A DNA stretch of 64,000 bases from Candidatus Babeliales bacterium (GTDB taxonomy: Bacteria > Babelota > Babeliae > Babelales > JANWKD01), in NCBI GenBank assembly GCA_963722075.1, contig CAVRJM010000001.1, positions 1,280,001 through 1,344,000 of the forward strand, given 5' to 3'. Position 1 is the first letter of the stretch. Each line of letters begins with the position of its first letter. Below are positions 1,086 to 62,865 of this stretch, piece by piece. Both the position numbers and the translations under genes were made by a program. The notes below the pieces were generated by a model. It was given only the letters and a program-made list of their open reading frames with translations. It had not been told where the DNA came from and made no database searches.

Positions 1086-1664
1086 TTATTGTATTCTATT
1101 TACCACTTGACCAGTTTGATTATAAATGAGCTCTTCATTTGTTGAATCCCATACATAGTGACCGGGAAAACCGGTAAGATTATAGGTATATTCATTTCTT
1201 GAGATATCTGAGTTAATTACTACTAGGCAGCGCACGCTGTCGCAACATGAAGATATGCATGCATTTTTGGAATGGAAGGTAAATCCTTTGCCGTTTTGGC
1301 TCGTTTGTTGGAGGCCGTAGCCGGGAAACTTCATTTTTGGATATCCATTTCGGACTATATCCGAGAATATATTTGGTTTTTGCTTGGATTGTTTTGGATT
1401 TAACTTAGGTTTGGTAAAGAAATATAAATAACCAATTATGCCAAGTCCAGTGGTAAAACCAAACAAAGTGGTAAGATTACTTTTTGAGCTATAATCCTCA
1501 TAATATATTTGTCTTATAAGGTTACAGGTGCTTGCTATGGTTGTAAGAGCTCCTAGTGTATAAAATGCATCTTTTCCATCCTTGGTAAGATTCATTGCAG
1601 AAAGGTTGAGATTGGAAGAAATGGCTATGCAAAGTAAAAAAAATTTTATTATTTTCATAAACAT
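1086..1664 (-). CDS. Hypothetical exported/membrane protein (signal peptide, Met at +1, two hydrophobic segments)
   Basis: 192-aa ORF; MKIIKFFLLCIAISSNLNLSA|MNL. Confidence 0.65.
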   Translation of the reverse strand: MFMKIIKFFLLCIAISSNLNLSAMNLTKDGKDAFYTLGALTTIASTCNLIRQIYYEDYSSKSNLTTLFGFTTGLGIIGYLYFFTKPKLNPKQSKQKPNIFSDIVRNGYPKMKFPGYGLQQTSQNGKGFTFHSKNACISSCCDSVRCLVVINSDISRNEYTYNLTGFPGHYVWDSTNEELIYNQTGQVVNRIQ

Positions 1665-1767
1665 GTTTCTTATTAGAGTTGTTAAATATTATACAGTTCA
1701 GTTGCATTATTGTTATATTTTATCATAGATTGTAATTAATGTAATAAAAAATAAACTTATTGTATAA

Positions 1768-1801
1768 CTGGGTTCCTACGGCCTAAAGGCCTCAGAATGA
1801 C
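1768..1801 (-). repeat. Single REP-like palindrome (TCT stem type)
   Basis: Reverse complement gtcattctgaggcctttaggccgtaggaacccag, near-identical to copies at 6663 and 45252. Confidence 0.85.
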
Positions 1802-1812
1802 ATTTTTTAATA

Positions 1813-2463
1813 ATGAATATAAAAATTTATCCCTCACTCATTTCTTCCAATTTACTTGACTTAGAAAAAACTATTACGGAACTTAGCCCGTACTGCGATG
1901 GTTTTCATCTAGATGTTATGGACAATCATTTTGTTCCTAATTTAACCATGGGGCCAGATTTTGTTAATCAGATAGCTGAACACACCGATAAGCAGTTGGC
2001 AGTACATTTGATGGTGGAGCAACCGCTTACTATTATCGAGCGCTTAAAAATGAATAGGAATGCCATTATAGCTGTTCATGTTGAAACTGATTTTTCAAAA
2101 ACGGTAATAGAAAAAATAAAAGCGCGCGGCTGGTTAGTAAGCATAGCTATTAATCCAAGTACGCCCTTAGAGCGTATATACCAATGGGCAGCTCAGGTTG
2201 ATCAAATCCTTTTAATGTCAGTACAGCCAGGGTTTTCAGGTCAGCAATTTATCCCTGAATCGGTAGGACGGCTTCAAAAACTAGTAAATTATAAAAAGGA
2301 GCATTCATTGCGCTTTGAAATTGCAATGGATGGGGGTATTAATAGCCATAATATTGCACAATTAGTTTCTATAGGTTGTACTTCTTTTTGTGTGGCATCT
2401 GCAATTTTTAATGCAGCCAATCCTGCGCTAGCACTTAAAAAATTATCTGAAGCCGTTTTTTAA
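1813..2463 (+). CDS. rpe: Ribulose-phosphate 3-epimerase
   Basis: HLDVMDNHFVPNLTMG, HLMV, LLMSVQPGFSGQQF and DGGI motifs. Confidence 0.96.
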   Translation: MNIKIYPSLISSNLLDLEKTITELSPYCDGFHLDVMDNHFVPNLTMGPDFVNQIAEHTDKQLAVHLMVEQPLTIIERLKMNRNAIIAVHVETDFSKTVIEKIKARGWLVSIAINPSTPLERIYQWAAQVDQILLMSVQPGFSGQQFIPESVGRLQKLVNYKKEHSLRFEIAMDGGINSHNIAQLVSIGCTSFCVASAIFNAANPALALKKLSEAVF

Positions 2464-3846: not shown

Positions 3847-3917
3847 TATAGGACCTATTCAATGATTTTATTATCAAAAGAATGGTAACAATAATGAAAA
3901 ATTGTTTGCAACACTTA

Positions 3918-5108: not shown

Positions 5109-5127
5109 TTAATTAGAATCTTACTAG

Positions 5128-5158: not shown

Positions 5159-5204
5159 ATGCAAATGCATTTAAAATATCGATTCAAAAGACTTAAATAG
5201 GATG

Positions 5205-10479: not shown

Positions 10480-11169
10480 GTGAAAAAGTTTTGTATCGCT
10501 ATAATTATTCTATTTGTAAATTTAATAAATGCTATGGAAACAGAGCCTTCCTTCTCCGTTGATTCTTATAAGGTGCATGATGAAAATAGTGGCTTACGGA
10601 TTGATAATTTAAAGTCTTCTGAGCATTCAAGCAATTCTGCGGTATATCAATTTTGTATTGCCATGTCTAAATATCCTCAAAAAATAAAAGTAATAAATAA
10701 TAATGCTGCAGCTAATTATATTGAAGCTGAACAACTGAAAAAAATAATAAAAGCTATTAACTATATTCAAAGCGAGGAAAAGCTGGATTTAACTGATTTA
10801 ATTGATATTATTCAAGAACCAGTAATAATGCAGCGAGAAGAACTCAGAGATGAATTAAAGCAGTTCTATCTAAGTAATTATAATTTGAGGCAGGAAAAGG
10901 GAGAGTTAGAAGATAAACTAGCTGAAAAAAATAAACATTTAGATGAACAATTACAAAAAAGAACGGGAGAGCTTCTTGAATCAGGAGCCGCACTATCACG
11001 TGTTTCGCTCGATATTGCAAATCTAACAAATCAATTAAAACAAAAAAGCAGATGGTTTTTTCAACGTCATCCATTATTAACAGCAGGTGGCGCCGTTCTT
11101 CTTTCAATGCCCATTTATTATGGTTTGTTCCGACTTTTGCAAGAATATAAGATTCCTTGTTTTGGTTAA
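10480..11169 (+). CDS. Exported coiled-coil protein with C-terminal membrane anchor, paralog 1 of 3
   Basis: GTG start with ggag RBS; signal peptide |METE; C-terminal RWFFQRHPLLTAGGAVLLSMPIYYGLF. Confidence 0.8.
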   Translation: MKKFCIAIIILFVNLINAMETEPSFSVDSYKVHDENSGLRIDNLKSSEHSSNSAVYQFCIAMSKYPQKIKVINNNAAANYIEAEQLKKIIKAINYIQSEEKLDLTDLIDIIQEPVIMQREELRDELKQFYLSNYNLRQEKGELEDKLAEKNKHLDEQLQKRTGELLESGAALSRVSLDIANLTNQLKQKSRWFFQRHPLLTAGGAVLLSMPIYYGLFRLLQEYKIPCFG

Positions 11170-11239: not shown

Positions 11240-11875
11240 ATGAAAAAATGTTTTATCGTTCTATTGCTTTTTACTGCTATATCCAATGCAATGGAAAAAA
11301 AAGAAATGCCGCAACAAGAAGCTTCTTTTACGGTTAAATACACCAAGGTTCATGAGGAAAATATTGGAAAACGTATTGATAATTCAAAATCTGATGATCA
11401 TTTAATTAGCTCAATGGTATATCACTTCTGTACTTTGTCTAAATATCCTACCAATATAACGGTGGTAAATAATAAAGTTGTTGCTAATGGTATTGGTGTT
11501 GAGCAATTGAAAAAAATGGTATCAGCTATCAAATATGAGCAAGCAAGCGGAACGTTAGATTTTACCGGTTTAATTGATGTGATATGTAAGCCGTTAACAA
11601 AACAACGAGATGAATGTTTACTTAAAATGGTAGAAGTGCAAAAAGAAAATGACGATTTACGGAAAGAAAACGATGAAGTAAGAAGAGAGAAAAATGGAAT
11701 AGCGTCCGCATTAACCAGGCTGCGCGTCCACAATAATGATTTAGGAAAACAATTAAAGCAACAAACCCGTTGGCTTTATCAACGCCATCCATTATTAACA
11801 GCAGCTGGCGCCGTTCTTCTTTCTCTGCCTTTATATTATGGGTTATTCTCATTATTAAAAACGTATCATTCTTGA
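11240..11875 (+). CDS. Exported coiled-coil protein with C-terminal membrane anchor, paralog 2 of 3
   Basis: ATG at 11240 after ggag; |MEKK; RWLYQRHPLLTAAGAVLLSLPLYYGLF. Confidence 0.8.
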   Translation: MKKCFIVLLLFTAISNAMEKKEMPQQEASFTVKYTKVHEENIGKRIDNSKSDDHLISSMVYHFCTLSKYPTNITVVNNKVVANGIGVEQLKKMVSAIKYEQASGTLDFTGLIDVICKPLTKQRDECLLKMVEVQKENDDLRKENDEVRREKNGIASALTRLRVHNNDLGKQLKQQTRWLYQRHPLLTAAGAVLLSLPLYYGLFSLLKTYHS

Positions 11876-12453: not shown

Positions 12454-12456
12454 AAA

Positions 12457-12491: not shown

Positions 12492-13181
12492 ATGAGGTTT
12501 AAGTTGAACTATTTTTTAATTATATTTTTCCTATTAACTACTATTGCTCAAGGCATGGATACGCAAAATCAAAAAGAGAAAACTCCTGTTCCTACCGAAG
12601 TGTCTTTTATTGTTGATTATCAAGAACATCTCAGAACTTGTTCGGTACGAGATAGAGAACCATTAGGGGTTGAACATATCATTAGCAGGATTGTAAAGCA
12701 TTTTGCTTTTAGTTTACGCAATCCTGAAAAAATTATAGTTCTTAATCGTGGCTACAATTGGAATTATGTTACTGAAGGTGACATTGAAAATATCTTTGGA
12801 GGATTTAGGTTTCAAGATGAACTCGATGGTCACGCAATAGCAAAACTAGATGTAACACGTTTATTGCATTATGCTCAACGAGGATTGAAGGAAAAACATT
12901 CACAGCGACAAAAAGAGATACAAGAAGAACATGATATAGAAAAAGGTAAATTAATGGAGATTATAAAAGAAAAAAAAGCAAAGTATTGTGATCTCAATAG
13001 GAAATGGCGTGCGCTTGATGCTGAAAAAAAAGATTTAGAAGATCGATTGAACCAAAAAAATAAATGGTTTTATCAACGCTATCCCTTGTTAACTGCAGGA
13101 TGTGCCGTTCTGTTTTCGATGCCTGTTTATTATAAACTATTTTTGATCTGGCAAAATTATCAAGCCGGTATTTCTTCGTAA
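12492..13181 (+). CDS. Exported coiled-coil protein with C-terminal membrane anchor, paralog 3 of 3
   Basis: |MDTQ after signal peptide; KWFYQRYPLLTAGCAVLFSMPVYYKLF. Confidence 0.8.
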   Translation: MRFKLNYFLIIFFLLTTIAQGMDTQNQKEKTPVPTEVSFIVDYQEHLRTCSVRDREPLGVEHIISRIVKHFAFSLRNPEKIIVLNRGYNWNYVTEGDIENIFGGFRFQDELDGHAIAKLDVTRLLHYAQRGLKEKHSQRQKEIQEEHDIEKGKLMEIIKEKKAKYCDLNRKWRALDAEKKDLEDRLNQKNKWFYQRYPLLTAGCAVLFSMPVYYKLFLIWQNYQAGISS

Positions 13182-15033: not shown

Positions 15034-15672
15034 GTGACACACCACAATAATAATAGAACAAAATTTATTATAATCGTAATCACAACCTTACTCTTTAATT
15101 GTTCGCTACTTAACAGTATGAATACCCAGACAGAAACGATTATTAGAGGAGTTGCTTACCCTGTCACATCAGTGTTACAATTTGATCGTAGAAAACTTGC
15201 TCAGTTAATTTCTAATCCAGCTAAGCAGCATTTAATATATGCGGGCTATAATCAACAAGAATTAGCATTAAATAGGTTAGCGTATATAAAATTATTGACA
15301 TACGACAATGAAAGAACGCGGAAAAGCCCTCAGGAAGCGCGTAATAGAAAATTGGCTACCACTTTTAAATGGGATTTTGATATAAGTGTATCTTTATTAG
15401 GCGGGGCATACAAACTTTATAAAAATGAGGATGAAAACAAAAAAATGTTTTTTTATCCACTAATTTTAGGTATGTGCATTGGAGGCACGTATTGCTTTCT
15501 TAAAGGTCTTATCCGATTAAGCAACAATTATTCTGCTCATGCTATTGAACAAAAAAGAGAACGGCGGAAAAAAGTTAATAATGATCTAATAACTTTTATT
15601 AGAGATAAAGCTAAACTTCCCGTGACAAAGGTAATAACTACCGATAATCGGGTAATGATGAGATTAAATTAG
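15034..15672 (+). CDS. Hypothetical exported/membrane protein (Met at +1)
   Basis: 212-aa ORF with aagga RBS; hydrophobic N-region then |MNTQ; internal TM segment. Confidence 0.65.
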   Translation: MTHHNNNRTKFIIIVITTLLFNCSLLNSMNTQTETIIRGVAYPVTSVLQFDRRKLAQLISNPAKQHLIYAGYNQQELALNRLAYIKLLTYDNERTRKSPQEARNRKLATTFKWDFDISVSLLGGAYKLYKNEDENKKMFFYPLILGMCIGGTYCFLKGLIRLSNNYSAHAIEQKRERRKKVNNDLITFIRDKAKLPVTKVITTDNRVMMRLN

Positions 15673-17743: not shown

Positions 17744-18607
17744 CTATACAAATTGTAAACATCTACTCCAACGAATTCGCTTCCAAAAATCGATTGGATG
17801 TAATAGTAAATCGAATATAAACCATGAATCATAACTATCAATTGAATAAATACGAAAAACTATTTTGCCATGAACTAAATGCTTATCAAAGGGACCAAAA
17901 TAACGAGAATCAGCACTGCCTTTACGATTATCTCCCATTGCCCATATTTGATTAGGGCCTAAATGAACATCAAATTCGTCAACATTACGGCCATTAACGA
18001 TTGTTGGTGTATAGGGTATTAAGAGTTGCTCTTCATGTAGTTTTGCCAAATATTTTTGTGCCAATTGTACATCAGCAGCATCCATTATATAAAAAGGTTG
18101 ATCTTCATAAGAATATGATGAATCATAGGTACGTGTATAAAATTTATCATCATGATAAATAGTAAGGAGTGGGTATTTATTCAAATGGGGCTCATCTAAT
18201 TTTTGTCCATTTCTATATACCACTGGTTTACCATCTTCAATAACGCCTTTGATATGATCGCCTGGTAATCCAATCACGCGCTTAGTCCAATTTTCTGGCC
18301 CATATACATAGCGTTGAAATAAATTAACAAAATAATTGTCTGAATAGGGAAAAACAGGGCTGTTTAGCGCAATAATATCCCCGTGTTGCAACTCTCTAAA
18401 AAGCACCGTGAATTTATCGGCAAAAAAACGTTCGCCAACCAACATGGTAGTTTCCATAGAGCCTGTGGGAACTTGATAGAGCCCATAAAAGAAGGTTCGA
18501 ATAATAAAGGCGAGCGGAACGATAACAATAATTGTTTCGATATATTGAGCAAGCGTTGATTTATTGGGACGCCGTATCCATGCCCAGAACCTATGCAAGA
18601 AATTCAT
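17744..18607 (-). CDS. lepB: Signal peptidase I
   Basis: VPTGSMETT (catalytic Ser), WTKRVIGLPGD (catalytic Lys), MGDNRKGSADSRYFG. Confidence 0.95.
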   Translation of the reverse strand: MNFLHRFWAWIRRPNKSTLAQYIETIIVIVPLAFIIRTFFYGLYQVPTGSMETTMLVGERFFADKFTVLFRELQHGDIIALNSPVFPYSDNYFVNLFQRYVYGPENWTKRVIGLPGDHIKGVIEDGKPVVYRNGQKLDEPHLNKYPLLTIYHDDKFYTRTYDSSYSYEDQPFYIMDAADVQLAQKYLAKLHEEQLLIPYTPTIVNGRNVDEFDVHLGPNQIWAMGDNRKGSADSRYFGPFDKHLVHGKIVFRIYSIDSYDSWFIFDLLLHPIDFWKRIRWSRCLQFV

Positions 18608-22940: not shown

Positions 22941-23561
22941 ATGCTATTCAGATCAAAAATTGCTTGTGCAGCTCTATTACTAAATTTATTTTTGTGCCCG
23001 TTAGCACAATCGAATGAAAGTCCTTTTAACCAAATAATAGAATTATTAGAATCCGGTGGTAACCATGATTATATTGGCGAACCGGTTTGCCAATTAGAAC
23101 ATGCCTTACAATGTGCTCAATTGGCAGTTGATGCTGGTGCTGATGATCAAACGGTACTAGCGGCATTACTTCATGATATTGGCCATTTATGCGCATCTGG
23201 TGATAACGCAACGATGGGTGAATATGGCATCGATCAACATGAAAAAGTGGGCGCTCAATTTGTTCGTGATCATGGTTTGCCCGAAAAAGTTGCGCAACTT
23301 ATTGAAGGTCATGTACAAGCAAAGCGGTATTTAACCGCTAAATATCCGGAATATTATCAAAAGCTTTCTGATGCTAGTAAACAAACGCTTGAATATCAAG
23401 GCGGCCCGATGTCGCCAGAAGAGGCTTTAGAATTTGAAAAAGACCCGTTATTTGAACAAAAGCTGCAAATGCGTTATTGGGATGAGCAAGCAAAGAAAGT
23501 GGGTTGGCAGGTAAAGCCGTTAGAAGATTATAAAACTTTGCTTGTTAATTATTTGCGTTAA
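22941..23561 (+). CDS. HD-domain protein of the PhnZ/TmpB-like oxygenase family, with signal peptide
   Basis: YIGEPV.QLEHALQ, LLHDIGH, HE..G, HVQAKRYL, LS.AS..TL..QGGPM, WDEQAK. Confidence 0.85.
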   Translation: MLFRSKIACAALLLNLFLCPLAQSNESPFNQIIELLESGGNHDYIGEPVCQLEHALQCAQLAVDAGADDQTVLAALLHDIGHLCASGDNATMGEYGIDQHEKVGAQFVRDHGLPEKVAQLIEGHVQAKRYLTAKYPEYYQKLSDASKQTLEYQGGPMSPEEALEFEKDPLFEQKLQMRYWDEQAKKVGWQVKPLEDYKTLLVNYLR

Positions 23562-25596
23562 AAAGATGTTTATGAGGGTAATTTTCTTTAATTTTATCCT
23601 GTAAAAACTTTTTAACTGCATCTGGTAATTTCTGAAGTGACGGTATAAATAGTTTAAATTCATCTGAGAATAAATAATCACTATTATCTTCTTCTATATG
23701 CTGTAAAGCATAATCAAATAGTAACATGGTTAAGAGGGATTGATCTTCTAGTTGCTTTTTATCATAAAAGCTATATTCAATTATTTGATTTTCAAAAGAA
23801 ACAAATAGTCGTCGATTATCATACGAAAATGCACAAGCGTTAGGTAGATCATAGGTATTATAAGGGATGGTTGTTATACATTCGCCGGTTTGGATTTCTA
23901 TTATTTGAATTTCTTCTCGTGCTGTTGGTGCATGCTTGTTTTTCAAAGTTGCCATAAGGGCACCATTAGGTGAAAAAACTAATTTATCTAAAGGTGATTT
24001 TTGTGGCAATTCTTTAAGAGATTTTTCAGCTTGTATATCCAATAAGCAAATGGCGTCTTCATCATTATATGCTAATACATTTGATGTTGGTGAAAAAGCA
24101 AAATCATATATTTTTTTATGAGTAGTATATGTTGTCACTATTGAATGTTTGGAATAATCATAAATATGAATTTTGCTATTCTCTTTTGAATCTTCATTAA
24201 TAGCAATAAGAGGGCCGTTGCGTGAAAATGCATGTTTAGTTGATAGTTGGTTATTAACGGTGATGGTTTGGTTAGTATTAAAATCATGCAAATAAGTAGC
24301 ATGCGGGTTTTGAGTAGAATATACTAGCTTATTATTTGGAATGAAGGTTATTGCTGCACAACAGCTATCTGAGTTAATAGTTTTAATACATTTACCAGTG
24401 TTTACATCCCATATTTTAATTAGATTATTATCGGTCCCTTTTTTTTGTTGGCTTGCTAAAAAAGCACCATCTGGTGAAAAGCTAAAGCATACATCTACAA
24501 GATTAATAGGTAGCTTACGTATTGGTTTCTTGGTTATGCAATCAATGAATGCAGTATCTTTAATTGTTTTTCTTATAAAAGCTGTTTGAGTGGGTGATAT
24601 AATAAATGCACCGTAATGACTGCTGGGTAGTTGTCTTAAAATGAACGATGAGGTTACTTTTTGTGCTATCTGCTTTGAAATGGTATTAATTCTTGTTGAA
24701 TGATTAATGATCTGCTGTACTAATAGCTGTTCTTGCTGCGGGGTAAGTTTAAACGCATTAAACCAAGAAATAAAGCCGGTAATAGTTTTGCTATATTTTT
24801 TTTGGGCTAATTCATACAGTTTTTCTAAGCAACTACTAGTTATTAATGAGAAATTAGTTTGCTGAACATAATCCAATAAGTGTGCAAGAGATGTTTGCGT
24901 ATAAGTAGTCCTAATACGGTTAATAATATGTGGTATACATAAATTTACTAAAGAAGGTATTTCAGCAGCTGGTAAAAAATAAGAAGTTTGCGGTGCTCGT
25001 ATTTTTTGCTCGGTTGAAGCATATTCAAAAAATAAACTGTCTGATTTTTTTAGCAAGGGATATCCTATTTGAGCAGATTGCCCAATAAGGTTGTTAATGG
25101 CATTGCGCAGTGCGTTGACAGTTTTTGTCCACTTATCGCACCCATTATTATACAAAGTAATAATTTGTGATAACCCATGCAGTTGCTTATGATGAATAAG
25201 AAAATCAATCAAAGGTAAAAGTTGTTCCAGAGCATTGTTAAAAAGCAGTTGATCTTCTTCTTGTTGAAGATGAATAATAGGCTCTATTAGTGTGCTGCAT
25301 AAATAATCAATCAGCTCATGATGAGTAGTATGCTGAATTAATTGAATCATAGCATTAAGTTGTTGATTAAGTGGTAGATTAGGGGTAAAGATCGAATTCA
25401 AAATATCTTGAAAGCAGTTATTATCCTGGTGATTAAAGGCATGTTCAAGTTGCTGTGCAATGTGGGTAATTGAAGAACTTTCTTGAATTGATATGTTGGT
25501 ATTGCTTGTATACGCTGTCTCCATAGAATATGTAAAGAAACCAGCAGTACTTAATGCAAATAGAAAATAAAGTAATTGCTTACCAATGAAATCCAC
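23545..25596 (-). CDS. WD40/beta-propeller repeat protein with signal peptide (Met at +1)
   Basis: FSPDGAFLAS, IKIWDVNTGKCIKTI, FSPNGALMAT, TGECITTI; |META after the hydrophobic N-region. Confidence 0.85.
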   Translation of the reverse strand: MDFIGKQLLYFLFALSTAGFFTYSMETAYTSNTNISIQESSSITHIAQQLEHAFNHQDNNCFQDILNSIFTPNLPLNQQLNAMIQLIQHTTHHELIDYLCSTLIEPIIHLQQEEDQLLFNNALEQLLPLIDFLIHHKQLHGLSQIITLYNNGCDKWTKTVNALRNAINNLIGQSAQIGYPLLKKSDSLFFEYASTEQKIRAPQTSYFLPAAEIPSLVNLCIPHIINRIRTTYTQTSLAHLLDYVQQTNFSLITSSCLEKLYELAQKKYSKTITGFISWFNAFKLTPQQEQLLVQQIINHSTRINTISKQIAQKVTSSFILRQLPSSHYGAFIISPTQTAFIRKTIKDTAFIDCITKKPIRKLPINLVDVCFSFSPDGAFLASQQKKGTDNNLIKIWDVNTGKCIKTINSDSCCAAITFIPNNKLVYSTQNPHATYLHDFNTNQTITVNNQLSTKHAFSRNGPLIAINEDSKENSKIHIYDYSKHSIVTTYTTHKKIYDFAFSPTSNVLAYNDEDAICLLDIQAEKSLKELPQKSPLDKLVFSPNGALMATLKNKHAPTAREEIQIIEIQTGECITTIPYNTYDLPNACAFSYDNRRLFVSFENQIIEYSFYDKKQLEDQSLLTMLLFDYALQHIEEDNSDYLFSDEFKLFIPSLQKLPDAVKKFLQDKIKENYPHKHLFNANN

Positions 25597-36847: not shown

Positions 36848-37276
36848 ATGTTTAAAAAATTTCTATTTTTATCATTAACATTATTCAATTTACATAATTG
36901 TCTTTCTATGAACACAAAAGAGCTTAAACAAACACGTATTCAAGAAGAAAATGGGAAGCCTTTTTATTCAGTAGAGTTTGAAGATACATGGGGTGATACC
37001 GATGCTCAAGCGCTATACAAATTTAAATCGCTCTATTCATTTTCAGAAAAGCCATCCTCTGAACTAGGTCAACTATTTTCTTCAAATGAAGATCATCGAC
37101 CATATCAACGGTTAATTGTAAACCGTCATTATGCACAATTACCATTTTATAAAAGACATGCCGGTAAATTTGGCTTGGGTGCAGGGTTATTGGTTGGCAT
37201 TTTTGGAATAGGAATGGCTTGTTCAGTTACCAAATTTTCAAATTGGTTATCAGAATGGAAAATATTTAATCCATAA
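36848..37276 (+). CDS. Hypothetical exported protein with C-terminal TM (Met at +1)
   Basis: aaggtg RBS; MFKKFLFLSLTLFNLHNCLS|MNT; FYKRH followed by a hydrophobic segment. Confidence 0.65.
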   Translation: MFKKFLFLSLTLFNLHNCLSMNTKELKQTRIQEENGKPFYSVEFEDTWGDTDAQALYKFKSLYSFSEKPSSELGQLFSSNEDHRPYQRLIVNRHYAQLPFYKRHAGKFGLGAGLLVGIFGIGMACSVTKFSNWLSEWKIFNP

Positions 37277-39937: not shown

Positions 39938-40282
39938 ATGATAGTAAGAAATTCACTGTTATTGGTTATTTTTTCATGTTGTGCAATTGACAGCTTATTG
40001 ACTATGGATAAAATGGAAATAAAAATTCAAAGAAAACTTTTTAAAATTGCGCGCAATCCATTATTAGTGGAATATCCAAATCAAACAGATCAGAAAGCTT
40101 TTTTACAATATAAAAAAGATCAAGAAATTGCTTTTGAAAGCGGTAAATTTTACACCTGTGAAATAATTAAGCATCCTACAGCTATAGGTTATTTATATAG
40201 CAAAATGTCGCAAGTATCTGATTTGAGGCGCATATTAATTGAATCTTTTTCTTACATAATATTTCCCGATGAAAAAAATTAG
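39938..40282 (+). CDS. Hypothetical exported protein (Met at +1)
   Basis: aggga RBS; hydrophobic N-region then |MDK. Confidence 0.6.
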   Translation: MIVRNSLLLVIFSCCAIDSLLTMDKMEIKIQRKLFKIARNPLLVEYPNQTDQKAFLQYKKDQEIAFESGKFYTCEIIKHPTAIGYLYSKMSQVSDLRRILIESFSYIIFPDEKN

Positions 40283-41031: not shown

Positions 41032-41421
41032 ATGAACTATATTTTATTACTAATGAGTCTGGCAATAATGACTTCTTCGTTACAAGCAATGAGATCTAAA
41101 GATGATACAAATCTTCCCAATAGAATTTACGGTAATAGCCGTGCAAATTCTGAAAATGAACCGCGTGTAGTAACGCTTCGTGTTTTATTAAATGCTAATA
41201 CCCACAATATTACTATGCAAGATCGTGAATTATTAACCGATTCTCCTTATTTGGTGCGCCCTCTTACTCGAGCGCAGCCTATATCAATGCAGTATAGATT
41301 ACCATGGATTCCGGGTACCCATTACAGGTCATTAGAAGATTGTTGTTGGTTAGGATTTTATTGTAGTGCTGCTGCAGGAATCGTGGGAATGGCATATTTA
41401 GCTTCGATGTTTGGTCAATAA
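41032..41421 (+). CDS. Hypothetical exported protein with C-terminal TM (Met at +1)
   Basis: MNYILLLMSLAIMTSSLQA|MRS; hydrophobic C-terminus. Confidence 0.6.
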   Translation: MNYILLLMSLAIMTSSLQAMRSKDDTNLPNRIYGNSRANSENEPRVVTLRVLLNANTHNITMQDRELLTDSPYLVRPLTRAQPISMQYRLPWIPGTHYRSLEDCCWLGFYCSAAAGIVGMAYLASMFGQ

Positions 41422-41458: not shown

Positions 41459-42760
41459 ATGGGTGGACATCATAAGTTATCATTTTGGACTGCCGTATTA
41501 GTTAATTTGAATGTAATGTTTGGTGCAGGCATATTCATTAATACTATATCGGTGGCCAAACAGGCAGGTTTTTTGGGATTCATAAGCTATTTGGTAGTAG
41601 CAATTCTTCTTATTCCCTTAATCATAGGTATGAGTCGTTTAATTGCGCTTTTTCCTAATGGGGGCTTTTATGGGTATGGTGCCCATACCATTAGCAAGGG
41701 CGTTGGTTTTTTTAGTGCATGGGCTTATTTTACTGGTAAATTAGCATCAGCGGCATTACTGGTTCATGTATTTTCAACGTTGATAGTATCATTATTTCCC
41801 GGGTACCTAGGAATATCAACTATTGCTCTTGATAGTATTATTATTTGTTTGTTTGCATGGCTCAATTTGCATCATATGAAAACAGGCAGAGCAATTATGT
41901 ATACCTTTATGGTTTTCAAAGTAGTGCCTATTCTCTTTGCTATTTTGAGTTGCCTTTATTTATATTCGTATTGGTCGGTGCCGGCCGATTTATTCTTATG
42001 GTCGGGAATACCTTATGCCATTCCATTGGTAATATTTGCTTTTACTGGTTTTGAAGTATGTTGTTCGTTAAGTAGTTCAATTGAAAATGCACAAAAAAAT
42101 GGACCACGCATTATTTTTTTAACGTATGGCTTAGTCGTTTGTACCACTATCATATATCAATTTTTTATGTTTCTTACCGCGGGTTCTTCTTTAATGGGTC
42201 AAGAAAGCTATTTAGGGGTTTTCCCAACACTATTGAGTTTATTATTTGCTGATAATTCTCTATTGGTGCAGCATGGTACGCACATCATTCATGTTGCAAT
42301 AGCGTGCGCTTCCCTGGGCGGAAGTTATGGCATATTATTTAGCAATCACTGGAATTTATATGCACTTGCTGAGCATAACCATACTTTTTTCCCTCAAATA
42401 CTTACCACTCTTAATAGTTATTCAATTCCGTTCTATTGCATACTAGTAGAAGCTATTCTTTGCATTTTTTATTTAGTGGTTACCCAAGCATCAGTAGTGA
42501 TATTACAACAGATTAGTGTGATGGGAAGTGTGCTTGCGTATACGATGAGCATGGTGGGACTTTTATATTTTAGCCGTACGCAGGATTCCTTCAATGGTCG
42601 TTATATAATATGGGGTGCCTTATTAAGCTGTTTATTATTTATAAGCTGTTGTGTAAGAAATTTTTATTATAATGGATTATATGCCTTTTATTTTTTCACC
42701 ATTATTTTAATTTTTGGCATTGGTATGTATTTAATTACCAAAAAGAAAGGTAGTGCGTGA
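41459..42760 (+). CDS. APC-family amino acid permease
   Basis: MFGAGIF, P..GG.YGY, GFFSAW.Y, FAFTGFE; about 12 TM segments. Confidence 0.9.
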   Translation: MGGHHKLSFWTAVLVNLNVMFGAGIFINTISVAKQAGFLGFISYLVVAILLIPLIIGMSRLIALFPNGGFYGYGAHTISKGVGFFSAWAYFTGKLASAALLVHVFSTLIVSLFPGYLGISTIALDSIIICLFAWLNLHHMKTGRAIMYTFMVFKVVPILFAILSCLYLYSYWSVPADLFLWSGIPYAIPLVIFAFTGFEVCCSLSSSIENAQKNGPRIIFLTYGLVVCTTIIYQFFMFLTAGSSLMGQESYLGVFPTLLSLLFADNSLLVQHGTHIIHVAIACASLGGSYGILFSNHWNLYALAEHNHTFFPQILTTLNSYSIPFYCILVEAILCIFYLVVTQASVVILQQISVMGSVLAYTMSMVGLLYFSRTQDSFNGRYIIWGALLSCLLFISCCVRNFYYNGLYAFYFFTIILIFGIGMYLITKKKGSA

Positions 42761-43923
42761 AATGGCTCTTGTTATGCTTAAATATAACAACTATTGTGTA
42801 TGGCATGGAAATTGAGGATGATAAAAATACTCAAAGCGAATGCCAATTACCGGCTGAAATTTTTTGTCTTATTCAAAAACAAGTAAATACGCGTCAGTAC
42901 TATACTATTAAATATTCTCCTGATACAGAAATTTTTAGCCCTAATAATAATAAGCTGGGGATTATTTCTCATGCAAGGGATAACCAACGATTTCAATTTA
43001 CAAATTTTGTTCATTATTCACCTGGATTTAATGATATGGAAGACCCGGGTTCTAAAACGGGTTTTATAGTTCATCATGAATTAGTAAAATTTCTATTTTT
43101 TGATGCTGGTTCTGGGGAGGCACATTTTGATGGTCCAAATGATGCTAATACATTTTTACTGAGTAATCCTATAAAAAATAGCAATGGAATCGTAGGTTAT
43201 AATATTTTTATGGCTTTTATAAAAAATAAGGATCAACGTAAAAAAATGCATCAGGATTGTTGGGATCGTTATTGCGATACATTTGATAACGCTATATTTA
43301 GGTGTGGATCTTTAACCGCTTTAGCATTATATAACAAGGACAATATAATTGCTTGTGCTGATAATTATGATTTAGACAAAAAGATAGCTCTTTATGATTC
43401 AACGGGAATCTTAATTACAGAAAGTGTTCTGCCTAAAAAGTATGGACTTTTAAAAAAGTTATCATTTTTAACTCATCGTACTTTGTTTGGATTAACGCAA
43501 AAAGGGCGATTGATTACTGTAGCGTTTCATGAAGCCTCGGGTACCTTAACTATCCATAAACAAAGAATAAAAGCAAACAATACCAAAGTTAAAGTACAAA
43601 ATTTTGCGGTGGATCCGTGCCATCTTGGGCAATTACTGTTGCTCCTGGAAGATAATCGGTTGTTTTTAGTGAACATTAAAAAACCTGCTATTGAATCCTT
43701 TTATATATTAAATACTGGTCCAATAGAAAACCTCTGGTTTTATAATGATAAAGTTGGGTATCTAGAAAAAGATTCAATTAAAGATAATAAAGCGACGTTT
43801 GTTACCTTTGATCTGTATCAATTTGTTAATGAACATGAGGTTAATAATAAGCATGCTAATGAATATTTGACTAAATTGGTAGAAAAATTTATAGATGATG
43901 ATAGAAATAGAAAACATAACTAA
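42757..43923 (+). CDS. Hypothetical exported protein (Met at +1), F-box-like start and probable beta-propeller
   Basis: IVYG|MEIE; QLPAEIFCLI; beta-strand-rich C-terminal half. Confidence 0.65.
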   Translation: MKWLLLCLNITTIVYGMEIEDDKNTQSECQLPAEIFCLIQKQVNTRQYYTIKYSPDTEIFSPNNNKLGIISHARDNQRFQFTNFVHYSPGFNDMEDPGSKTGFIVHHELVKFLFFDAGSGEAHFDGPNDANTFLLSNPIKNSNGIVGYNIFMAFIKNKDQRKKMHQDCWDRYCDTFDNAIFRCGSLTALALYNKDNIIACADNYDLDKKIALYDSTGILITESVLPKKYGLLKKLSFLTHRTLFGLTQKGRLITVAFHEASGTLTIHKQRIKANNTKVKVQNFAVDPCHLGQLLLLLEDNRLFLVNIKKPAIESFYILNTGPIENLWFYNDKVGYLEKDSIKDNKATFVTFDLYQFVNEHEVNNKHANEYLTKLVEKFIDDDRNRKHN

Positions 43924-48017: not shown

Positions 48018-48227
48018 ATGAAATACCATCTTCCATTACTAACATTAATTTGTTGCTTGGTAGTAATGAGTCATAGTATGGATAATAGTAGGCAAGAGCG
48101 TGATAAAAGAAATCAAAAAGCTCAGGCAGAATGTCAGGCAAAGCGTAAAAAAAAACCTGACAGAACCGAAGAGGAACTAGCCCAAGATGCTATTTATATT
48201 GCAACTTTAAATTGTATTTTAATGTAA
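48018..48227 (+). CDS. Small exported protein (Met at +1)
   Basis: 69 aa; MKYHLPLLTLICCLVVMSHS|MDN; basic KRKKK stretch. Confidence 0.5.
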   Translation: MKYHLPLLTLICCLVVMSHSMDNSRQERDKRNQKAQAECQAKRKKKPDRTEEELAQDAIYIATLNCILM

Positions 48228-56821: not shown

Positions 56822-57100
56822 ATGAAAAATGTGTCTGTTGGGATAAGCGATTTTAAGAAACTTATCACTGGAAATTATTATTATGTCGATAAGACACTGT
56901 TAATTAGAGAGCTATTTGAAAGCCCTGGAATAGTACAATTAATTCCCCGTCCGCGTCGGTTTGGCAAGACGCTTAACCTTTCCATGTTAAAATATTTTTT
57001 TGAAAAAACCGAAATTGATAATAGTGGCCTTTTTACGAACACCAAGATTTGGCATGATGAGCAATATAGAAAACTGCAAGGAAAATATTCGGTAATCCTT
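56822..57100 (+). pseudogene. N-terminal fragment of an AAA-ATPase-like/PD-(D/E)XK family protein
   Basis: GISDFKKL....YYYVDKT, PRPRRFGKTLNLSMLKYFF, GKYSVI. Family resemblance stops near residue 93, far short of full-length members. Confidence 0.8.
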
Positions 57101-57483
57101 TATTGGCCGCTGTTAAATAAACTTCTTTTGCATAGTCTTGTGATTGGAAATAATTTTGTTGTTTTGCTTCTGGAAAATATTTTTTATAGAAATCTATGTA
57201 GAGGTCCAATCCTTTTTGGAGCAAATTTATAAATATGGGGTTTGTCAGTTTTTGGTAGTTTGCTTAAAACTTCTGCATAATGGGCATTTACTAATGCAAT
57301 TTGCCGAATACAATCATGTGCTTCAACCGCTTTTTTAAATTCTTCTTGATACAGTTCTTCATTATTTTTAAGTTCTCGTCTCAGTGCAAAATGTTCTTCC
57401 ATAGGATTGCTGCTGGTAATAGGCGTGGATGTGGATTCACAGTCTTGCATGCAATAAGGAGATACAGAAAATAAGATACTCAT
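57033..57483 (-). pseudogene. Hypothetical protein split by a frameshift near 57225
   Basis: ORFs 57184-57483 and 57033-57224 join (KPHIY-x-LLQKGLDLY) if one base is removed from tataaattt. Confidence 0.45.
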
Positions 57484-57560: not shown

Positions 57561-60311
57561 TTATAGAATATTTTGTAACCAAGAATAATGTGGTTGCTTT
57601 TTTAATTTATCCAATTCTTGTTGATGTTCTAGAGATAATTGAGCGCCATATTTTTTTAATATTCTAATAACTTTTCTAACTTGCCTTCGTTCCAAGTAAA
57701 ATTCCATATCCCATCCTTCGTGCATATATTGAATTAGCTCTCGATATTTATTAAGTAATAGTTCTGATTGCAAATTTGAAGAAATGCCATATGAACACAA
57801 TAATTTAATCTTTTTTAAACCATCAGCATCATCGCCAAACGTAAATACTCTTTTTACAAATTCTTCGTCTTGATTATAGCCGGCATCTAAAAATAATTTA
57901 AAAATTTCTTCTTGAGTGTATGATGATAAATTTAGATTAAAATTATCCGCTGATGGCTTGAAATTAAGCACTTCTTTTAAAAAAAGATTAATTTTTGATA
58001 AAGCAGCTTGCGGATTATGATCATGTTTGCTCCATGAAGCCTCAAGCAAAAGTCTATCTATAATTCTATAAGATTGAGCACCCATATTCAGTAATTCTAT
58101 AAATTCAGATAGTTTGTTTTTGTAAAGTGTGTATTCCAATAGATTATATGCAGTCACGGATCCAGGGATATTAGAATTAACGGATTTAGAAAGCTCATCC
58201 GCGATTGTTGTGTTTAAATAATCGCTATTTTCTGCGTTATAGTTAAAAATTCTTTTCAGGGATTCTTTTTGTTCTTGATGGGATATTTGTAACTGCGAAT
58301 GCCGTTTTAACGGTAATAAGTTTTTAAAAATAAGAGCATCAATTAAGTGATTTTCTCCATATTTAAACCTACGAAGTAACGATTTAACCTCGTTAGTATC
58401 TAGAATGATGTCCAATTGTTCTTGTTGAGGTAAATAATAAATAAGCCCATCAATGAATATTTTTTCTTCCCCAGAAAGGTCCTGCCTAAAAATTTTTTTT
58501 AGTAAAGGGATATGATTTTTTAAATACTCCTCAAATCGCTTATCTTTTAAATGAATTTTATAACGAATAATTGCCTTAATGACTGACTCGATAAAATGTT
58601 CATCATTAGGAAGACTTTGCATTAAACTGAATGCTAAATCAAAAAAAGCAGGAGAATGCTTATAATAAAATATCTCATTAATAACCAATAGTGCTTGATT
58701 GGGATCATGTAATGGTTGGCTAATAAAGTAATGATACAAAACTTCGTCAGATGAAGTTTGGCACCGCTCACGTGGATTCAATGCAGTAAGGCAACTTAAA
58801 TTTTGTTTTGTTAACGGATTAAGTTCATAATCTTTTGCATTAAGAAAGGTCAAACAATAAGGAGAGCCATATTTTGAATCTTTTTTTCTTAAATCTTTTA
58901 TAAACGTATGCCCGGGAACGATAGTTAATAGCAATTTATCAGACTGATTCTTTTCAGTTATGGTAATAGTAATGGTATTATGTTTAGCTTCAATATCATT
59001 AACTGGTTGGAATGTTATTTTCCTGCGATGATCAGAAAGAGCTTCACCTAATTCTTGGAAGGTGGTCACCTTTATATTCAACAAGTAATTAAACAGATTG
59101 ATGACATTAATCGCTGATGAACGAATTTCATAATTACCGCGAACATATTCTATAGTTGGACTATCTGAAACGGTATTCATCCATGCTTGGCCGGCACCAC
59201 GTACCAAGGTGCTATCTTTTTGATTATTAACTGAGTCAAAAGAGCAATAATCAATATAAAATTGAATTAATTCTTGACGTGGGCTGATTGTATCGGGGAG
59301 CATTGAAAGGTCAAACGAACTATCCTTATGGTTTACTAATAAACGGTTAAAAATACTCCGCATTGAAGTTTCAAAACAATCCGGTGCTCTGTTTTGTGAA
59401 TCGCCATATGCATAAGCACTTTGAATTACTTGAGGAGGATATACATTTGCATATTGTTCTTTAATAGTAGTAATGATTGTTTGCTCATAATGATCAGTAG
59501 CAAATCCTATAGGATTTGTTTGACTATAATTTTGTTTAAAGTTTTCTAAAAATTCAGCGTATTTTTGTTCTGTTTCATTGGAATAATGGTCAGCTATTAA
59601 TTGTTGCGCATTATTTGATTCTTTAAAAACGGGTAGATGGTTATGAAGTGACTCTAAATATTGTACCGGCTCTTCTTTTTTATTGGCTTTAAGATGTAAA
59701 AAGCCTAACAGTGATGATTGCGTACTATGTGGTAATAAGTGCTTTTTATGTTTGCTTTCCTGGGCAGCTTTTTGTATGGTATCAAGAACGGCGTTAATTT
59801 TAGCTAAACTAGCTCTATCAGCAACTCTATTATGCTCATCTTTCCATTGCTGGGCAATGTTATCTTTCGTTTTATCAAAAGTATTATTCTGTAAGCTTCC
59901 TATAATGGTCCCTACTAGGCGCGGGTTTAATGAGTAACAAGGGTTACTTTTATTTTGAGTTGGCCTAAATTGATCATCGCGCAAGTGGAATAATCCTGTT
60001 TTTTCATCTGATACCAATTTTGTTAATGCATCTTGCTCGCTGCCATACTGATATAATCGTTTTAACCATCCACTTTCAGCGAGCGCTGCACCATGAATAG
60101 GGGAAAAAGGCTTTGCTTCATCAGTAAGCCCATTATAAAGATGCTTTAAGTGATCATGATGGAGTGAGCGGGTTCTGGAAAATGAAAAAGGAGAAAAGGC
60201 ATTAAATAAATTTGAAATAGTTTTTCGAGAACGGGCAGTGATACGACTCATAGCCCAGGCTGCAGGGCTAGTGGATAGTAATAACACTATTAAAAATTTA
60301 TAAAAAGACAT
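57561..60311 (-). CDS. Large exported protein: signal peptide + presequence-like segment, possible Cys-His domain, degenerate ankyrin-like C-terminus
   Basis: aggagg RBS; AAWA|MSRITARSRK; PDCFET and PGHTF; repeated LLxxGA/GY/GI motifs. Confidence 0.8.
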   Translation of the reverse strand: MSFYKFLIVLLLSTSPAAWAMSRITARSRKTISNLFNAFSPFSFSRTRSLHHDHLKHLYNGLTDEAKPFSPIHGAALAESGWLKRLYQYGSEQDALTKLVSDEKTGLFHLRDDQFRPTQNKSNPCYSLNPRLVGTIIGSLQNNTFDKTKDNIAQQWKDEHNRVADRASLAKINAVLDTIQKAAQESKHKKHLLPHSTQSSLLGFLHLKANKKEEPVQYLESLHNHLPVFKESNNAQQLIADHYSNETEQKYAEFLENFKQNYSQTNPIGFATDHYEQTIITTIKEQYANVYPPQVIQSAYAYGDSQNRAPDCFETSMRSIFNRLLVNHKDSSFDLSMLPDTISPRQELIQFYIDYCSFDSVNNQKDSTLVRGAGQAWMNTVSDSPTIEYVRGNYEIRSSAINVINLFNYLLNIKVTTFQELGEALSDHRRKITFQPVNDIEAKHNTITITITEKNQSDKLLLTIVPGHTFIKDLRKKDSKYGSPYCLTFLNAKDYELNPLTKQNLSCLTALNPRERCQTSSDEVLYHYFISQPLHDPNQALLVINEIFYYKHSPAFFDLAFSLMQSLPNDEHFIESVIKAIIRYKIHLKDKRFEEYLKNHIPLLKKIFRQDLSGEEKIFIDGLIYYLPQQEQLDIILDTNEVKSLLRRFKYGENHLIDALIFKNLLPLKRHSQLQISHQEQKESLKRIFNYNAENSDYLNTTIADELSKSVNSNIPGSVTAYNLLEYTLYKNKLSEFIELLNMGAQSYRIIDRLLLEASWSKHDHNPQAALSKINLFLKEVLNFKPSADNFNLNLSSYTQEEIFKLFLDAGYNQDEEFVKRVFTFGDDADGLKKIKLLCSYGISSNLQSELLLNKYRELIQYMHEGWDMEFYLERRQVRKVIRILKKYGAQLSLEHQQELDKLKKQPHYSWLQNIL

Positions 60312-60326
60312 ACAACCTCCTAATTT

Positions 60327-61535
60327 TTATTGCTTCAGTTGATTTAATTGTTTGGTAACTTCCGTAGCCATTTTTTTTAATTCAGGATCATAATTAAAAC
60401 GATCGGGATGAAATTGGCTCACCAGTTTTAAATAAGCGGTCTTAATTTCTTCATCGGCAGTGATATAAGAAAGCCCCACCAGAAGATTTGTATTGAGTTT
60501 CTTATTATTTTTTATTTGGGTAAATAAATGATACACCGCCTGTTCAGTTGAATTTTGGTATTTGTTTTCATCAAAATTAGTGAATTGTTGTGCTGATTCA
60601 TACTTAGCATAGTTTGCAGTATTAGATTGATAACTTTTAGATTCTTGGGCACGGTTTTTTTGTTGAGCGGGTATATCTAAAACATTATATAAATCATGAC
60701 ATTTATTGGTGGTAATAGTTTCTTTACAAATAACGGTTTTATATTCTTCGATATATATTAAATCGCCCTTGCGATATGTTACCCTTTTACATGGTTGCAT
60801 AAGAATGGAAAGTATAACTTCGTAAATATGAACATTCTCGTAGTTATATTCTCGAAGAGCAGCATTACGTGCTTCTTTTATTTCTATATAATATTGAACT
60901 AAATCGCCCGGTTCAAAATAGAGCTGTAATTTTTTTAAAGCACCAATATTGAGTTTGCGTACTGCCAATCGTAATGCTTTTTTATTAAGGCGAGCGCCAT
61001 ATTTTAACAAGGTGCTTATAAGAGCCTCTTGCTTTTCGGGAGAAAGATGTTTGCTTAAAAAGACCGCATGGTCGAGCGCGGTTGATCCCATTACTCCCGT
61101 GCGATGATCAAGACAACTATTAAGTAAGTTGGCATCACGCATTTTTTGTACTAATTCTTCAAATGAAAGATTGGCAAAAAAAGAGCACTCTTTACCTTGT
61201 GTTTTAGCTGCAAAGGCGTCCAAAAGTTCATCATGGTATTGTTGTGTTGATTTAAAGTAGGATTTAACGTGTTCCCATATAGTTTGTTGTGGCTTTGAAT
61301 ATGAAAATAATCTGCGTGGCGCAGGATTAGTAAAAGGAGCTTTTTGTTCATTATTATAGCCAGAAAAAGTCCATAAGGTTCCTAAAAAGATTTTAGATCG
61401 ATTATTGAAAGGGTTAGAAGGCCTAAAAATGCTCGAAAGAGAAGCAGTAGATCTTGGCCTGGTAACTTTATTCATTCCCCAGCTATAGGTAGAAATAAAT
61501 AGAAGGAATAAGATAATAAACTTATAAAAAGACAT
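60327..61535 (-). CDS. Exported protein with an ankyrin-like repeat and C-terminal DnaJ (J) domain
   Basis: YSWG|MNKVTRPRS; GSTALDHAV...LLKYGA; EIKTAYLKLVSQFHPDRF (HPD motif). Confidence 0.82.
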   Translation of the reverse strand: MSFYKFIILFLLFISTYSWGMNKVTRPRSTASLSSIFRPSNPFNNRSKIFLGTLWTFSGYNNEQKAPFTNPAPRRLFSYSKPQQTIWEHVKSYFKSTQQYHDELLDAFAAKTQGKECSFFANLSFEELVQKMRDANLLNSCLDHRTGVMGSTALDHAVFLSKHLSPEKQEALISTLLKYGARLNKKALRLAVRKLNIGALKKLQLYFEPGDLVQYYIEIKEARNAALREYNYENVHIYEVILSILMQPCKRVTYRKGDLIYIEEYKTVICKETITTNKCHDLYNVLDIPAQQKNRAQESKSYQSNTANYAKYESAQQFTNFDENKYQNSTEQAVYHLFTQIKNNKKLNTNLLVGLSYITADEEIKTAYLKLVSQFHPDRFNYDPELKKMATEVTKQLNQLKQ

Positions 61536-61571
61536 ATAAACCCCATTTAGTTATTTATTGTGTATAAATAT

Positions 61572-61686
61572 AAAATAAATTAAAATTTGCTATTTGTCAA
61601 ATAATATAGGATTGGTAGAAAATGGGAGATTTTATTTGTTTTTTTGTTAATGCAAATTGGACAGAAGAAAAGGGTTCTTATAGACT
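61572..61686. promoter_or_regulatory. Divergent sigma70-like promoters
   Basis: Minus strand TTGACA (61600-61595)-17bp-TATTTT; plus strand TGGACA (61658)-17bp-TAGACT (61681). Confidence 0.5.
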
Positions 61687-61728
61687 ACAATTTATACAAA
61701 AAATAGGTCGTTTTGATAAAGGATTATA

Positions 61729-62865
61729 ATGAAAAAGCTCTTATGGTGCATAGGGTTATTTGGATTATTGCCAATGGTTTATTCAATGGATGAAGAACAG
61801 CTTCAAGAAACGGTTATTGGCATTTCATATGAAGATCTACCAGTTGAATTACATTTCCATATTGCTAAATGTATCAGTGATGATATTGTTTCGGGGATTG
61901 AAAATTACCAGCAATTTCAAAAAGCACTTGATGCTTATAAAGTATTAGTCAATATTGGTTTAGTATCTCATTATCATGATGAACTGGTTAAAAGCCTTCA
62001 TATTCCTGCCAACTTTCCCCTCAATATTTCTTCTGATAATGCTTTAACAGAAATTGATGAGCAATTAGCTAAAAAATCACGCCAGAAGGAAAATGTGATT
62101 GGCTTAAAAATACATTTGTTGGCGGAAGAATTAAGGCAATTTCCTGATCTTAGCACTATTGATGAAAAAGTATGTTCCGATGATGAAACGCGCGGTTTTA
62201 TTCGAAAAGGGTTGGTTACCTTATTGAGCAGGGAACTATATAAACATCCTCATTTTGATAAGGGTCTGTTCTCGAAAGAAAATATTGAGGTTCTTTCAAC
62301 AAAAAATATATCTCCTGATTTTACTATTCAAGGTAAGCCATTATTGTTTTACTCAATGATGCTAGGCGATTGTGTTATTTGCGCTGATATAAGAAAAAGA
62401 GAGGAAGAACTTGGGTCTAGAAAAATAGATCGAGCAAAACATTATATATTTTATTTTTGTCCTCCTTATCGTGATAGATATCATTGGATTACTGATGTTT
62501 TTGGGGAAGAATACCCTGACTATCATTTTTTAAATACCTACTATGAAAAACAAGATGCGCAATGGGCAGAACGGAGAACAAAAGGGACATATGATATATA
62601 TCAGCAATCTAACATATGTTTATTGAGCCACACAGAAAAAAAGGCTGATCAGCTGTATGATGGGGATGAAAATGAAAAACACAAAAAGAGAATTGGGGAG
62701 AGCTTTTTATTTTTACAGGATTTTATGAAATCTGGTGGTACCGTTAGTAAGGTATATGGATTGACTCTCGAGGATGAATACATCAAAGATGCGATTGATG
62801 CTTTGAAGTTTGCCATAAATAAAGATGGTGTAGAATCTGTACAAGAAGCGGATCCAGCTTCATAA
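61729..62865 (+). CDS. Hypothetical exported protein (Met at +1) with F-box-like motif
   Basis: aagga RBS; MVYS|MDEE; YEDLPVELHFHIAKCI. Confidence 0.75.
   Translation: MKKLLWCIGLFGLLPMVYSMDEEQLQETVIGISYEDLPVELHFHIAKCISDDIVSGIENYQQFQKALDAYKVLVNIGLVSHYHDELVKSLHIPANFPLNISSDNALTEIDEQLAKKSRQKENVIGLKIHLLAEELRQFPDLSTIDEKVCSDDETRGFIRKGLVTLLSRELYKHPHFDKGLFSKENIEVLSTKNISPDFTIQGKPLLFYSMMLGDCVICADIRKREEELGSRKIDRAKHYIFYFCPPYRDRYHWITDVFGEEYPDYHFLNTYYEKQDAQWAERRTKGTYDIYQQSNICLLSHTEKKADQLYDGDENEKHKKRIGESFLFLQDFMKSGGTVSKVYGLTLEDEYIKDAIDALKFAINKDGVESVQEADPAS

Follow-up and report, generated by a model that had tools for sequence, protein, structure and literature searches.

Why do so many of the exported proteins encoded in a single stretch of DNA appear to begin, once their signal peptide is removed, with methionine? 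The stretch, called the window here, is the 64-kb segment from position 1,280,001 to 1,344,000 of contig CAVRJM010000001.1 of a Candidatus Babeliales bacterium (assembly GCA_963722075.1). An earlier note on its sequence listed 14 exported proteins with Met at the first position (+1) after the predicted signal peptidase I site and proposed an N-terminal code for effectors. Three origins were offered: (a) mimicry of host N-termini, (b) a signal for a second export step, or (c) signal peptides fused to the start codons of captured genes, with an internal start as a variant. All 14 motifs were found at their genes, in frame, 16-28 residues past the start and with A, G, S or T at position -1, and 12/14 have D, E or N after the Met. 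The +1 Met is a real feature that extends through the genome and across the phylum, and the two-residue motif Met-E/D/N/Q is under selection.

The source genome (1.47 Mb, 35% GC, 1371 called genes) belongs to the Babelota (Dependentiae) and has an ATP/ADP translocase gene. Members of this phylum are intracellular parasites of protists (PMC6561590). Cleavage sites were called with a purpose-written heuristic that scores the hydrophobic h-region and positions -3 and -1 and never reads the +1 residue; all sites are therefore predicted and not experimental. The heuristic returned plausible sites for E. coli OmpA and AppA, judged against the known sites. Proteins with a score of at least 4.6 and at most one further membrane segment formed the working set of 552 signal-like proteins. 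A loose rule that tolerated a shift of a few residues between the Met and the best site gave 221 Met proteins, including false calls such as pilins, the Ser-Met of the signal peptidase LepB itself, a penicillin-binding protein anchor and Met residues of the h-region. The strict counts are the safer ones.

Met was found at the predicted +1 position of 154/552 proteins in the working set, more than a quarter of them. The background frequency of Met is 1.6-1.8%, and 200 shuffles averaged 17.9 and never exceeded 30. The excess that the earlier note saw in the window, and on whose presence genome-wide its claim depended, thus holds for the genome as a whole. Offsets neighbouring +1 held 0-31 Met. 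Met was the commonest +1 residue, followed by L (39) and S (38), with Gln in 25/552, and a permissive set gave 176/727. A check that uses no predicted site agreed: A, S or G precedes 254/424 Met residues located after the h-region vs ∼19% of internal Met. The Met proteins satisfy the features of Sec and signal peptidase I substrates, namely a basic n-region, a hydrophobic h-region and small residues at -1 and -3. In the loose set the signal length peaks at 18-20, and position -1 is occupied by A (101), S (56), G (40), P (12), T (7) and C (5), the rule itself requiring a small residue there. The 221 proteins fall into 152 BLAST clusters, so the pattern is not that of one expanded family.

The same pipeline was applied to other bacteria. 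+1 Met was found in 0/15 proteins from 98 kb of E. coli, 0/15 from 98 kb of Fusobacterium (26% GC), 0/10 from a Cardinium plasmid and 0/1 from a Bandiella plasmid. AT-richness and predictor bias were rejected as causes on the strength of these controls, all of them small. The AT-rich control, NZ_CP084075.1 of Fusobacterium vincentii (2.1 Mb; L173, L174), is filed as a plasmid and looks chromosomal.

A Met near the N-terminus could also be the true start codon, or the internal start of a cytoplasmic isoform, a variant that the earlier note had suggested checking by looking for a ribosome-binding site. The 16S end of the genome has the usual anti-Shine-Dalgarno sequence. Pairing with it at -3.5 kcal/mol or better was found for 70% of the first starts of 183 Met proteins vs 3.8% of their +1 ATGs; the +1 ATG rate is even below that of 6338 ATGs deep within genes (11%). 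Among the 14 window genes, 12 have a first start that pairs at -3.2 kcal/mol or better, and no +1 ATG falls below -2.2. Because the ribosome-binding site lies at the upstream start, the +1 Met is not a start codon, and this variant of option (c) is refuted. One gene call fits a start at the Met: the database representative of the protein at 42757 has 372 amino acids, 16 fewer than the 388 of the open reading frame, and the difference equals the length of the signal peptide. A RelE-like case outside the window may, by eye, be a false call of the same kind. We give a start codon at this Met almost no probability. Gene callers may nevertheless begin such genes at the second Met, thereby hiding the signal peptide.

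The residue after the Met is restricted. Among the 154 strict proteins, +2 is E, D, N or Q in 122 (79%), which would give these proteins the class of N-terminus acetylated by NatB in eukaryotes; it is small in 8, bulky in 9 and basic in 15. E/D/N/Q drop to 27% at +3 of Met proteins, so the bias is specific to the position, and they likewise make up 27% at +2 of non-Met proteins and 22% after the genome's own gene starts. Among relatives in the loose set they occupy +2 in 135/229. Homolog families, 130 in number, were all-Met in 27 cases, without Met in 78 and mixed in 25, many of the last through false loose calls. Within all-Met families the site always has its Met, whereas -1 may be A, G, S, P or C, +2 may be E, Q, N, D or K, and the downstream sequence diverges. 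A longer motif, M-E-x-P, recurs: MEAP occurs 13 times, in unrelated proteins with different codons and signal sequences, and Pro is at +4 in 43/221 loose Met proteins. Pro at -1 is unusual for signal peptidase I; it is found in 12/221 loose Met proteins and is interchangeable with Ser in one paralog pair.

The Met is not distributed evenly among kinds of protein. Pfam scan 1 covered C1:1-765 kb, with 116 Met proteins and the 150 best-scoring of 171 non-Met proteins. Scan 2, held out, covered C1:765-1170 kb, with 49 Met and 64 non-Met proteins of at least 100 amino acids, the 64 drawn from the 100 best-scoring in the second half of the genome. Neither scan reached the final 250 kb outside the window or the small contigs. 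Ankyrin, WD40, Sel1, C2H2, DnaJ, AAA and Skp1 were counted as eukaryote-type domains. They were found in 19/116 Met vs 5/150 non-Met proteins (p=3e-4) and, in the held-out scan, in 12/49 vs 4/64 (p=0.012). Pooled, the counts were 31/165 vs 12/214 (p=7e-5); the p-values are optimistic owing to paralogs. Eukaryote-like domains are thus enriched among +1 Met proteins, the test that the earlier note had proposed. Genome-wide, the Met is carried by 24/36 signal-bearing ankyrin proteins, 13/16 WD40 proteins and 4/4 Skp1_POZ proteins (6 ankyrin and 1 WD40 assigned by eye). The non-Met set holds periplasmic and envelope families: OmpH, HtrA, MreC, solute-binding proteins, FKBP, secretins and BamD-like proteins. 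Enzyme and envelope matches in the Met set (penicillin-binding protein, pilin, LigD, oxidoreductase, thioredoxin, beta-helix) look by eye like false calls, and two metallophosphoesterases and a PEBP protein may be true members. Met proteins are also specific to their lineage: a 2.4-Mb sample of other Babelota contains relatives of 6/183 Met vs 53/331 non-Met proteins. Judged from sequence, this bias towards eukaryote-type and orphan proteins supports a putative effector-class code. At G000:C1:973370-982700 four tandem Skp1_POZ and WD40 proteins all belong to the Met class, and two of them start with a basic stretch resembling a nuclear localization signal.

Other Babelota share the feature in part. 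Met led all other residues at +1 (29/240) in 49 loci that surround signal peptidase genes. A DNA pattern (MK or MN, hydrophobic codons, a small residue, Met, then E/D/Q/N/K/H) gave 1578 matches in 121 Babelota genomes vs 536 for a control with a His codon; it matched 4 times in 4.6 Mb of E. coli and 5 times, once in frame, in 2.1 Mb of Fusobacterium. By this test, which has low power per genome and treats kin that are not independent, 38/121 genomes in 8/17 families were individually significant at p<0.01. The pattern was seen in Babela massiliensis (P0067), where an ankyrin protein shows IIA-MET (a hyphen marks the predicted cut), and in Vermiphilus pyriformis. It is patchy: +1 Met was found in 0/12 proteins of G006, 0/8 of G007, 0/29 of G016, 0/8 of G010 and 0/9 of G009. 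Even within one family, 7/8 ankyrin proteins of G028 and 0/9 of G008 carry it, by eye.

Type II secretion is not patchy in this way. Two or three secretins were found in 31/31 genomes tested, and in the source genome the type II locus (G000:C1:1151734-1160265) has the order GspC-GspD-PilM/GspL-like-GspD, its large secretins (932 and 799 amino acids) lying on either side of the PilM/GspL-like gene. Type II is the only secretion system described in Babela (PMC4378268). Since several lineages with this system, and some clear effectors, lack the Met, the residue is not a tag that export requires. The source genome also has two signal peptidase I paralogs, ∼69% identical, at window positions 17744-18607 and at G000:C1:326673-327542, and many Babeliales have two or three copies, at times in tandem. 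LepB copy number was rejected as the cause; there was no correlation, G014 having one copy and being Met-rich and G007 having two copies and no Met seen.

In the window, ten of the 14 proteins lie on the forward strand. INA-MET (10480..11169, +1 ATG at 10534), SNA-MEK (11240..11875, 11291) and AQG-MDT (12492..13181, 12555) are tandem paralogs, the first with a GTG start preceded by a ribosome-binding site. LNS-MNT (15034..15672, 15118), CLS-MNT (36848..37276, 36908), LLT-MDK (39938..40282, 40004) and LQA-MRS (41032..41421, 41089) are orphans. VYG-MEI (42757..43923, 42805) is the protein with the shortened database entry. SHS-MDN (48018..48227, 48078) is small. VYS-MDE (61729..62865, 61786), also forward, has an F-box-like LPxE by pattern only and no Pfam match. 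On the reverse strand, LSA-MNL (1086..1664, 1595) has 192 amino acids and no Pfam match, and TYS-MET (23545..25596, 25524) is a eukaryote-type WD40 beta-propeller with paralogs in the genome. AWA-MSR (57561..60311, 60251) is a paralog of an ankyrin-bearing protein, and its mature N-terminus, rich in Arg and Ser and free of acidic residues, is like a mitochondrial presequence. SWG-MNK (60327..61535, 61475) has a presequence-like N-terminus, a weak DnaJ match and ankyrin-like features that are a lead only, all ESM Atlas leads being under 0.9. The reverse-strand signal peptidase I (Peptidase_S26, 17744..18607) is the predicted cutting enzyme or its paralog.

The mature parts of the 14 have no mutual BLASTP matches outside the tandem trio, as the earlier note had it. 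Its label of orphan holds for part of them and not for the WD40 protein or the protein with the weak DnaJ match, and further paralogs of four of them lie in other parts of the genome. The note was also right that the exported EEP, HD and SET proteins lack a Met at the predicted site; DdpX does likewise by eye. An ESM Atlas search with the N-terminal 45 residues gave no usable match, homolog searches for the AAA protein and the 42757 protein returned almost nothing, and Rfam and tRNA scans of the window gave no matches. The SET methyltransferase (16412-16882) bears a signal, as does a DOT1-family protein at L073:4-621, and both are possible chromatin-directed effectors. A GNAT acetyltransferase with a hydrophobic N-terminus (19644-20261) lies two genes from lepB; two further signal-bearing GNATs are at C1:581247-582837, and acetyl-CoA is not expected in the periplasm. 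A Fic-like gene (9662-10394) is apparently split into two overlapping open reading frames, by eye, and a short AAA-ATPase_like fragment (56822-57232) looks truncated.

A second cassette was seen past the signal peptide, mostly in non-Met proteins. It is a leucine-heptad amphipathic helix of ∼22 residues, often followed by a Pro-rich linker, and occurs in 13/552 signal-like proteins vs 1/3422 internal windows. Its partner domains, EEP, MavL-like, RING and orphan ones, are unrelated to each other (G000:C1:377929, 438101, 438949, 515432, 931396, 941185, 946819, 985915, 1075639-1081462 and 1132271; L138 of G020; L100 of G014), and a Macro protein and a NUDIX protein end in similar helices. A second export or membrane-targeting tag is possible.

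What would a Met-E/D/N/Q end do for an effector? The motif, its position, its conservation among paralogs and its eukaryote-type and orphan bias are observed, as is a type II system. From these we infer that the proteins are cut at the Met bond, secreted and taken into the host cytosol, and why the Met is selected. Sec export and signal peptidase I would expose Met-E/Q/N/D, and the type II system would carry the folded protein out. DnaJ, AAA, C2H2 and Skp1 domains require cytosolic or nuclear partners, and host-cytosol entry is suggested by such domains. A Met followed by a small residue would be clipped by methionine aminopeptidase. In human cells, degrons are formed by basic or bulky residues when exposed and by an unacetylated Met ahead of a bulky residue; UBR4, KCMF1 and UBR2 bind MI, ML, MY and MF peptides that lack acetylation but bind unacetylated ME poorly, and IAP and ZER1/ZYG11B target NatA-type ends that are unacetylated (PMC10611716). 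Met-E/D/N/Q would escape the Arg/N-degron pathway, the small-residue ligases and methionine aminopeptidase alike.

The earlier note had linked the motif to NatB. The class of N-terminus is indeed that of NatB, which is ribosome-associated (PMC10611716); a folded effector arriving after translation would miss it, which makes acetylation doubtful, and the gain more probably lies in being free of degrons while unacetylated. Because the +2 spectrum shuns both bulky and small classes, degron avoidance without acetylation is favoured. We put about an even chance on the proposal that Met-E/D/N/Q gives delivered effectors an N-terminus ignored by host N-degron ligases and aminopeptidases. As a mechanism this is plausible from the sequences at hand, and option (a), host mimicry, fits best.

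A minority of Met proteins, two of them in the window, continue with Arg/Ser-rich, acid-free, presequence-like stretches, and others with basic stretches like nuclear localization signals, as a newly made host protein would. The former are notable in view of the remodelling of the host mitochondrion by Chromulinavorax (PMC6561590). An address code on type II cargo is conceivable, in which Met-E/Q/N/D would mean cytosol, Met with a presequence mitochondria and Met with a basic patch nucleus, the leucine-heptad helix tagging a second class of enzymes. We hold this tentatively and on balance doubt it. A mitochondrial cleavage motif, picked post hoc, occurred in 3/443 vs 0/704 (p=0.057, not significant).

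Several observations weigh against degron avoidance and its extension. With RING, UCH and MavL-like proteins included, the held-out domain contrast becomes 12/49 vs 7/64 (p=0.076). The ubiquitin hydrolase, RING and MavL-like effectors lack the Met and have Gln at +1 in all three, the SET and DOT1 methyltransferases lack it too, and so do 12/36 signal-bearing ankyrin proteins, several with predicted destabilising +1 residues. In eight Met-poor genomes, 0/26 signal-bearing ankyrin proteins carry the Met, by eye. Pfam F-box-like gave no match in the genome. Presequence-like N-termini are not enriched (5/214 Met vs 9/310 non-Met). The M-E-x-P motif is left unexplained, the N-degron specificities are extrapolated to a protist host from human and yeast, and cleavage and delivery are predictions. 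The MavL-like, RING and ubiquitin-hydrolase genes with +1 Gln are at G000:C1:931396, 1132271 and 1149061, and Gln is found in 20/317 non-Met proteins. Such ends could, on a post hoc view, cyclise to a blocking pyroglutamate.

Some of these points are better accounted for if Met-E/Q/N/D-x-(P) serves the bacterium itself as a sorting signal. Once past Sec, a single class of cargo would then be picked out by whatever reads the motif, be it the type II system, one of the signal peptidase paralogs or a chaperone of the periplasm. The boundary between envelope and effector-like proteins is sharp, more so than degron avoidance explains, and the motif reaches +4, with MEAP in unrelated proteins. The secretins come in at least pairs in every genome tested, the source genome has two LepB copies, Pro at -1 suggests an unusual peptidase specificity, and the leucine-heptad cassette marks many cargoes without Met. 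There is also precedent in Plasmodium, where export is decided by the mature N-terminus (bioRxiv 2023.07.12.548774). However, type II is universal in the order while the Met is patchy even within a family, LepB copy number does not follow the Met, and the UCH and RING proteins, which lack it, must still get to host ubiquitin. Lineages with the same system have signal-bearing ankyrin proteins lacking the Met, which weakens option (b) as a universal signal, and we consider a sorting signal somewhat unlikely.

The Met might instead be a neutral relic, left where a signal peptide cassette was repeatedly fused to the start codon of captured genes or a signal-plus-Met cassette was shuffled. PEBP/YbhB-family domains start at or beside the Met in three genomes, DnaJ domains start 8-11 residues or less from it, and Met genes tend to be neighbours (57 adjacent pairs vs 28 after shuffling). 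A relic would not explain why diverged paralogs hold the Met while -1 and +2 swap within narrow sets, nor why +2 is unlike the genome's own gene starts and depleted in small residues. Ala and Ser are common after Met at eukaryotic starts and are missing here at +2, and the MEAP cassettes differ in codons and signal sequence. Fusion may be the origin of some members, but selection must keep the Met, and neutral option (c) is improbable. Smaller still is the probability that Met-acidic ends shield proteins from periplasmic or vacuolar aminopeptidases or serve a bacterial N-terminal modifying enzyme. S9/S15-type peptidases are exported, GNATs with hydrophobic N-termini exist and the Q-rule of Bacteroidetes is a precedent (PMC5837995), but resident envelope proteins, which most need such protection, lack the Met. 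No modifying enzyme was identified, a search across Met-rich and Met-poor genomes not having been made.

The Babelota motif resembles several known systems and differs from each. Under the Q-rule, Gln at +1 of signal peptidase I substrates is cyclised by glutaminyl cyclase (PMC5837995), with stability as the proposed benefit (PMC10653852). Both are lineage-specific single residues that dominate the position directly past the site. In Babelota, however, the residue is Met with a fixed +2 preference, is limited to effector-like cargo and not spread over all compartments, reaches 28-40% of substrates vs 60% or more, and is patchy within the phylum. In Plasmodium, also an intracellular parasite, PEXEL proteolysis of a secretory precursor likewise uncovers an N-terminus by which effectors bound for the host are marked (bioRxiv 2023.07.12.548774), the cut and the targeting being predicted in Babelota; PEXEL uses the eukaryotic endoplasmic reticulum, plasmepsin V and an RxL motif, whereas here a bacterial Sec/signal peptidase I site would expose Met. 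The Babelota rule belongs to neither. Effectors of Babela massiliensis and Chromulinavorax destructans, in the same phylum, have Sec signals, type II secretion and ankyrin, WD40 and ubiquitin-system classes, and signal peptides but no +1 Met are reported in the main texts of those papers (PMC4378268, PMC6561590). The word methionine occurs 0 times in the main texts of PMC6561590, PMC4378268, PMC4776705 and PMC5837995, the abbreviation Met not having been searched. No description was found in literature on Dependentiae/Babeliae/TM6 secretion, signal peptidase mature N-termini, effector N-degrons or Holosporales, with earlier mention possible in supplements or subscription papers, and the pattern is apparently undescribed so far.

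Orphan secreted proteins take a large share of small Dependentiae genomes, and a Met-E/D/N/Q mark that separates effector-like from envelope proteins is a predictor for ∼150-220 genes in the source genome and makes their delivery route testable. It would tie bacterial signal peptidase processing to host N-degron biology. If true, the address code would give bacteria an equivalent of PEXEL maturation and would mean that a type II system delivers hundreds of effectors into a host cytosol.

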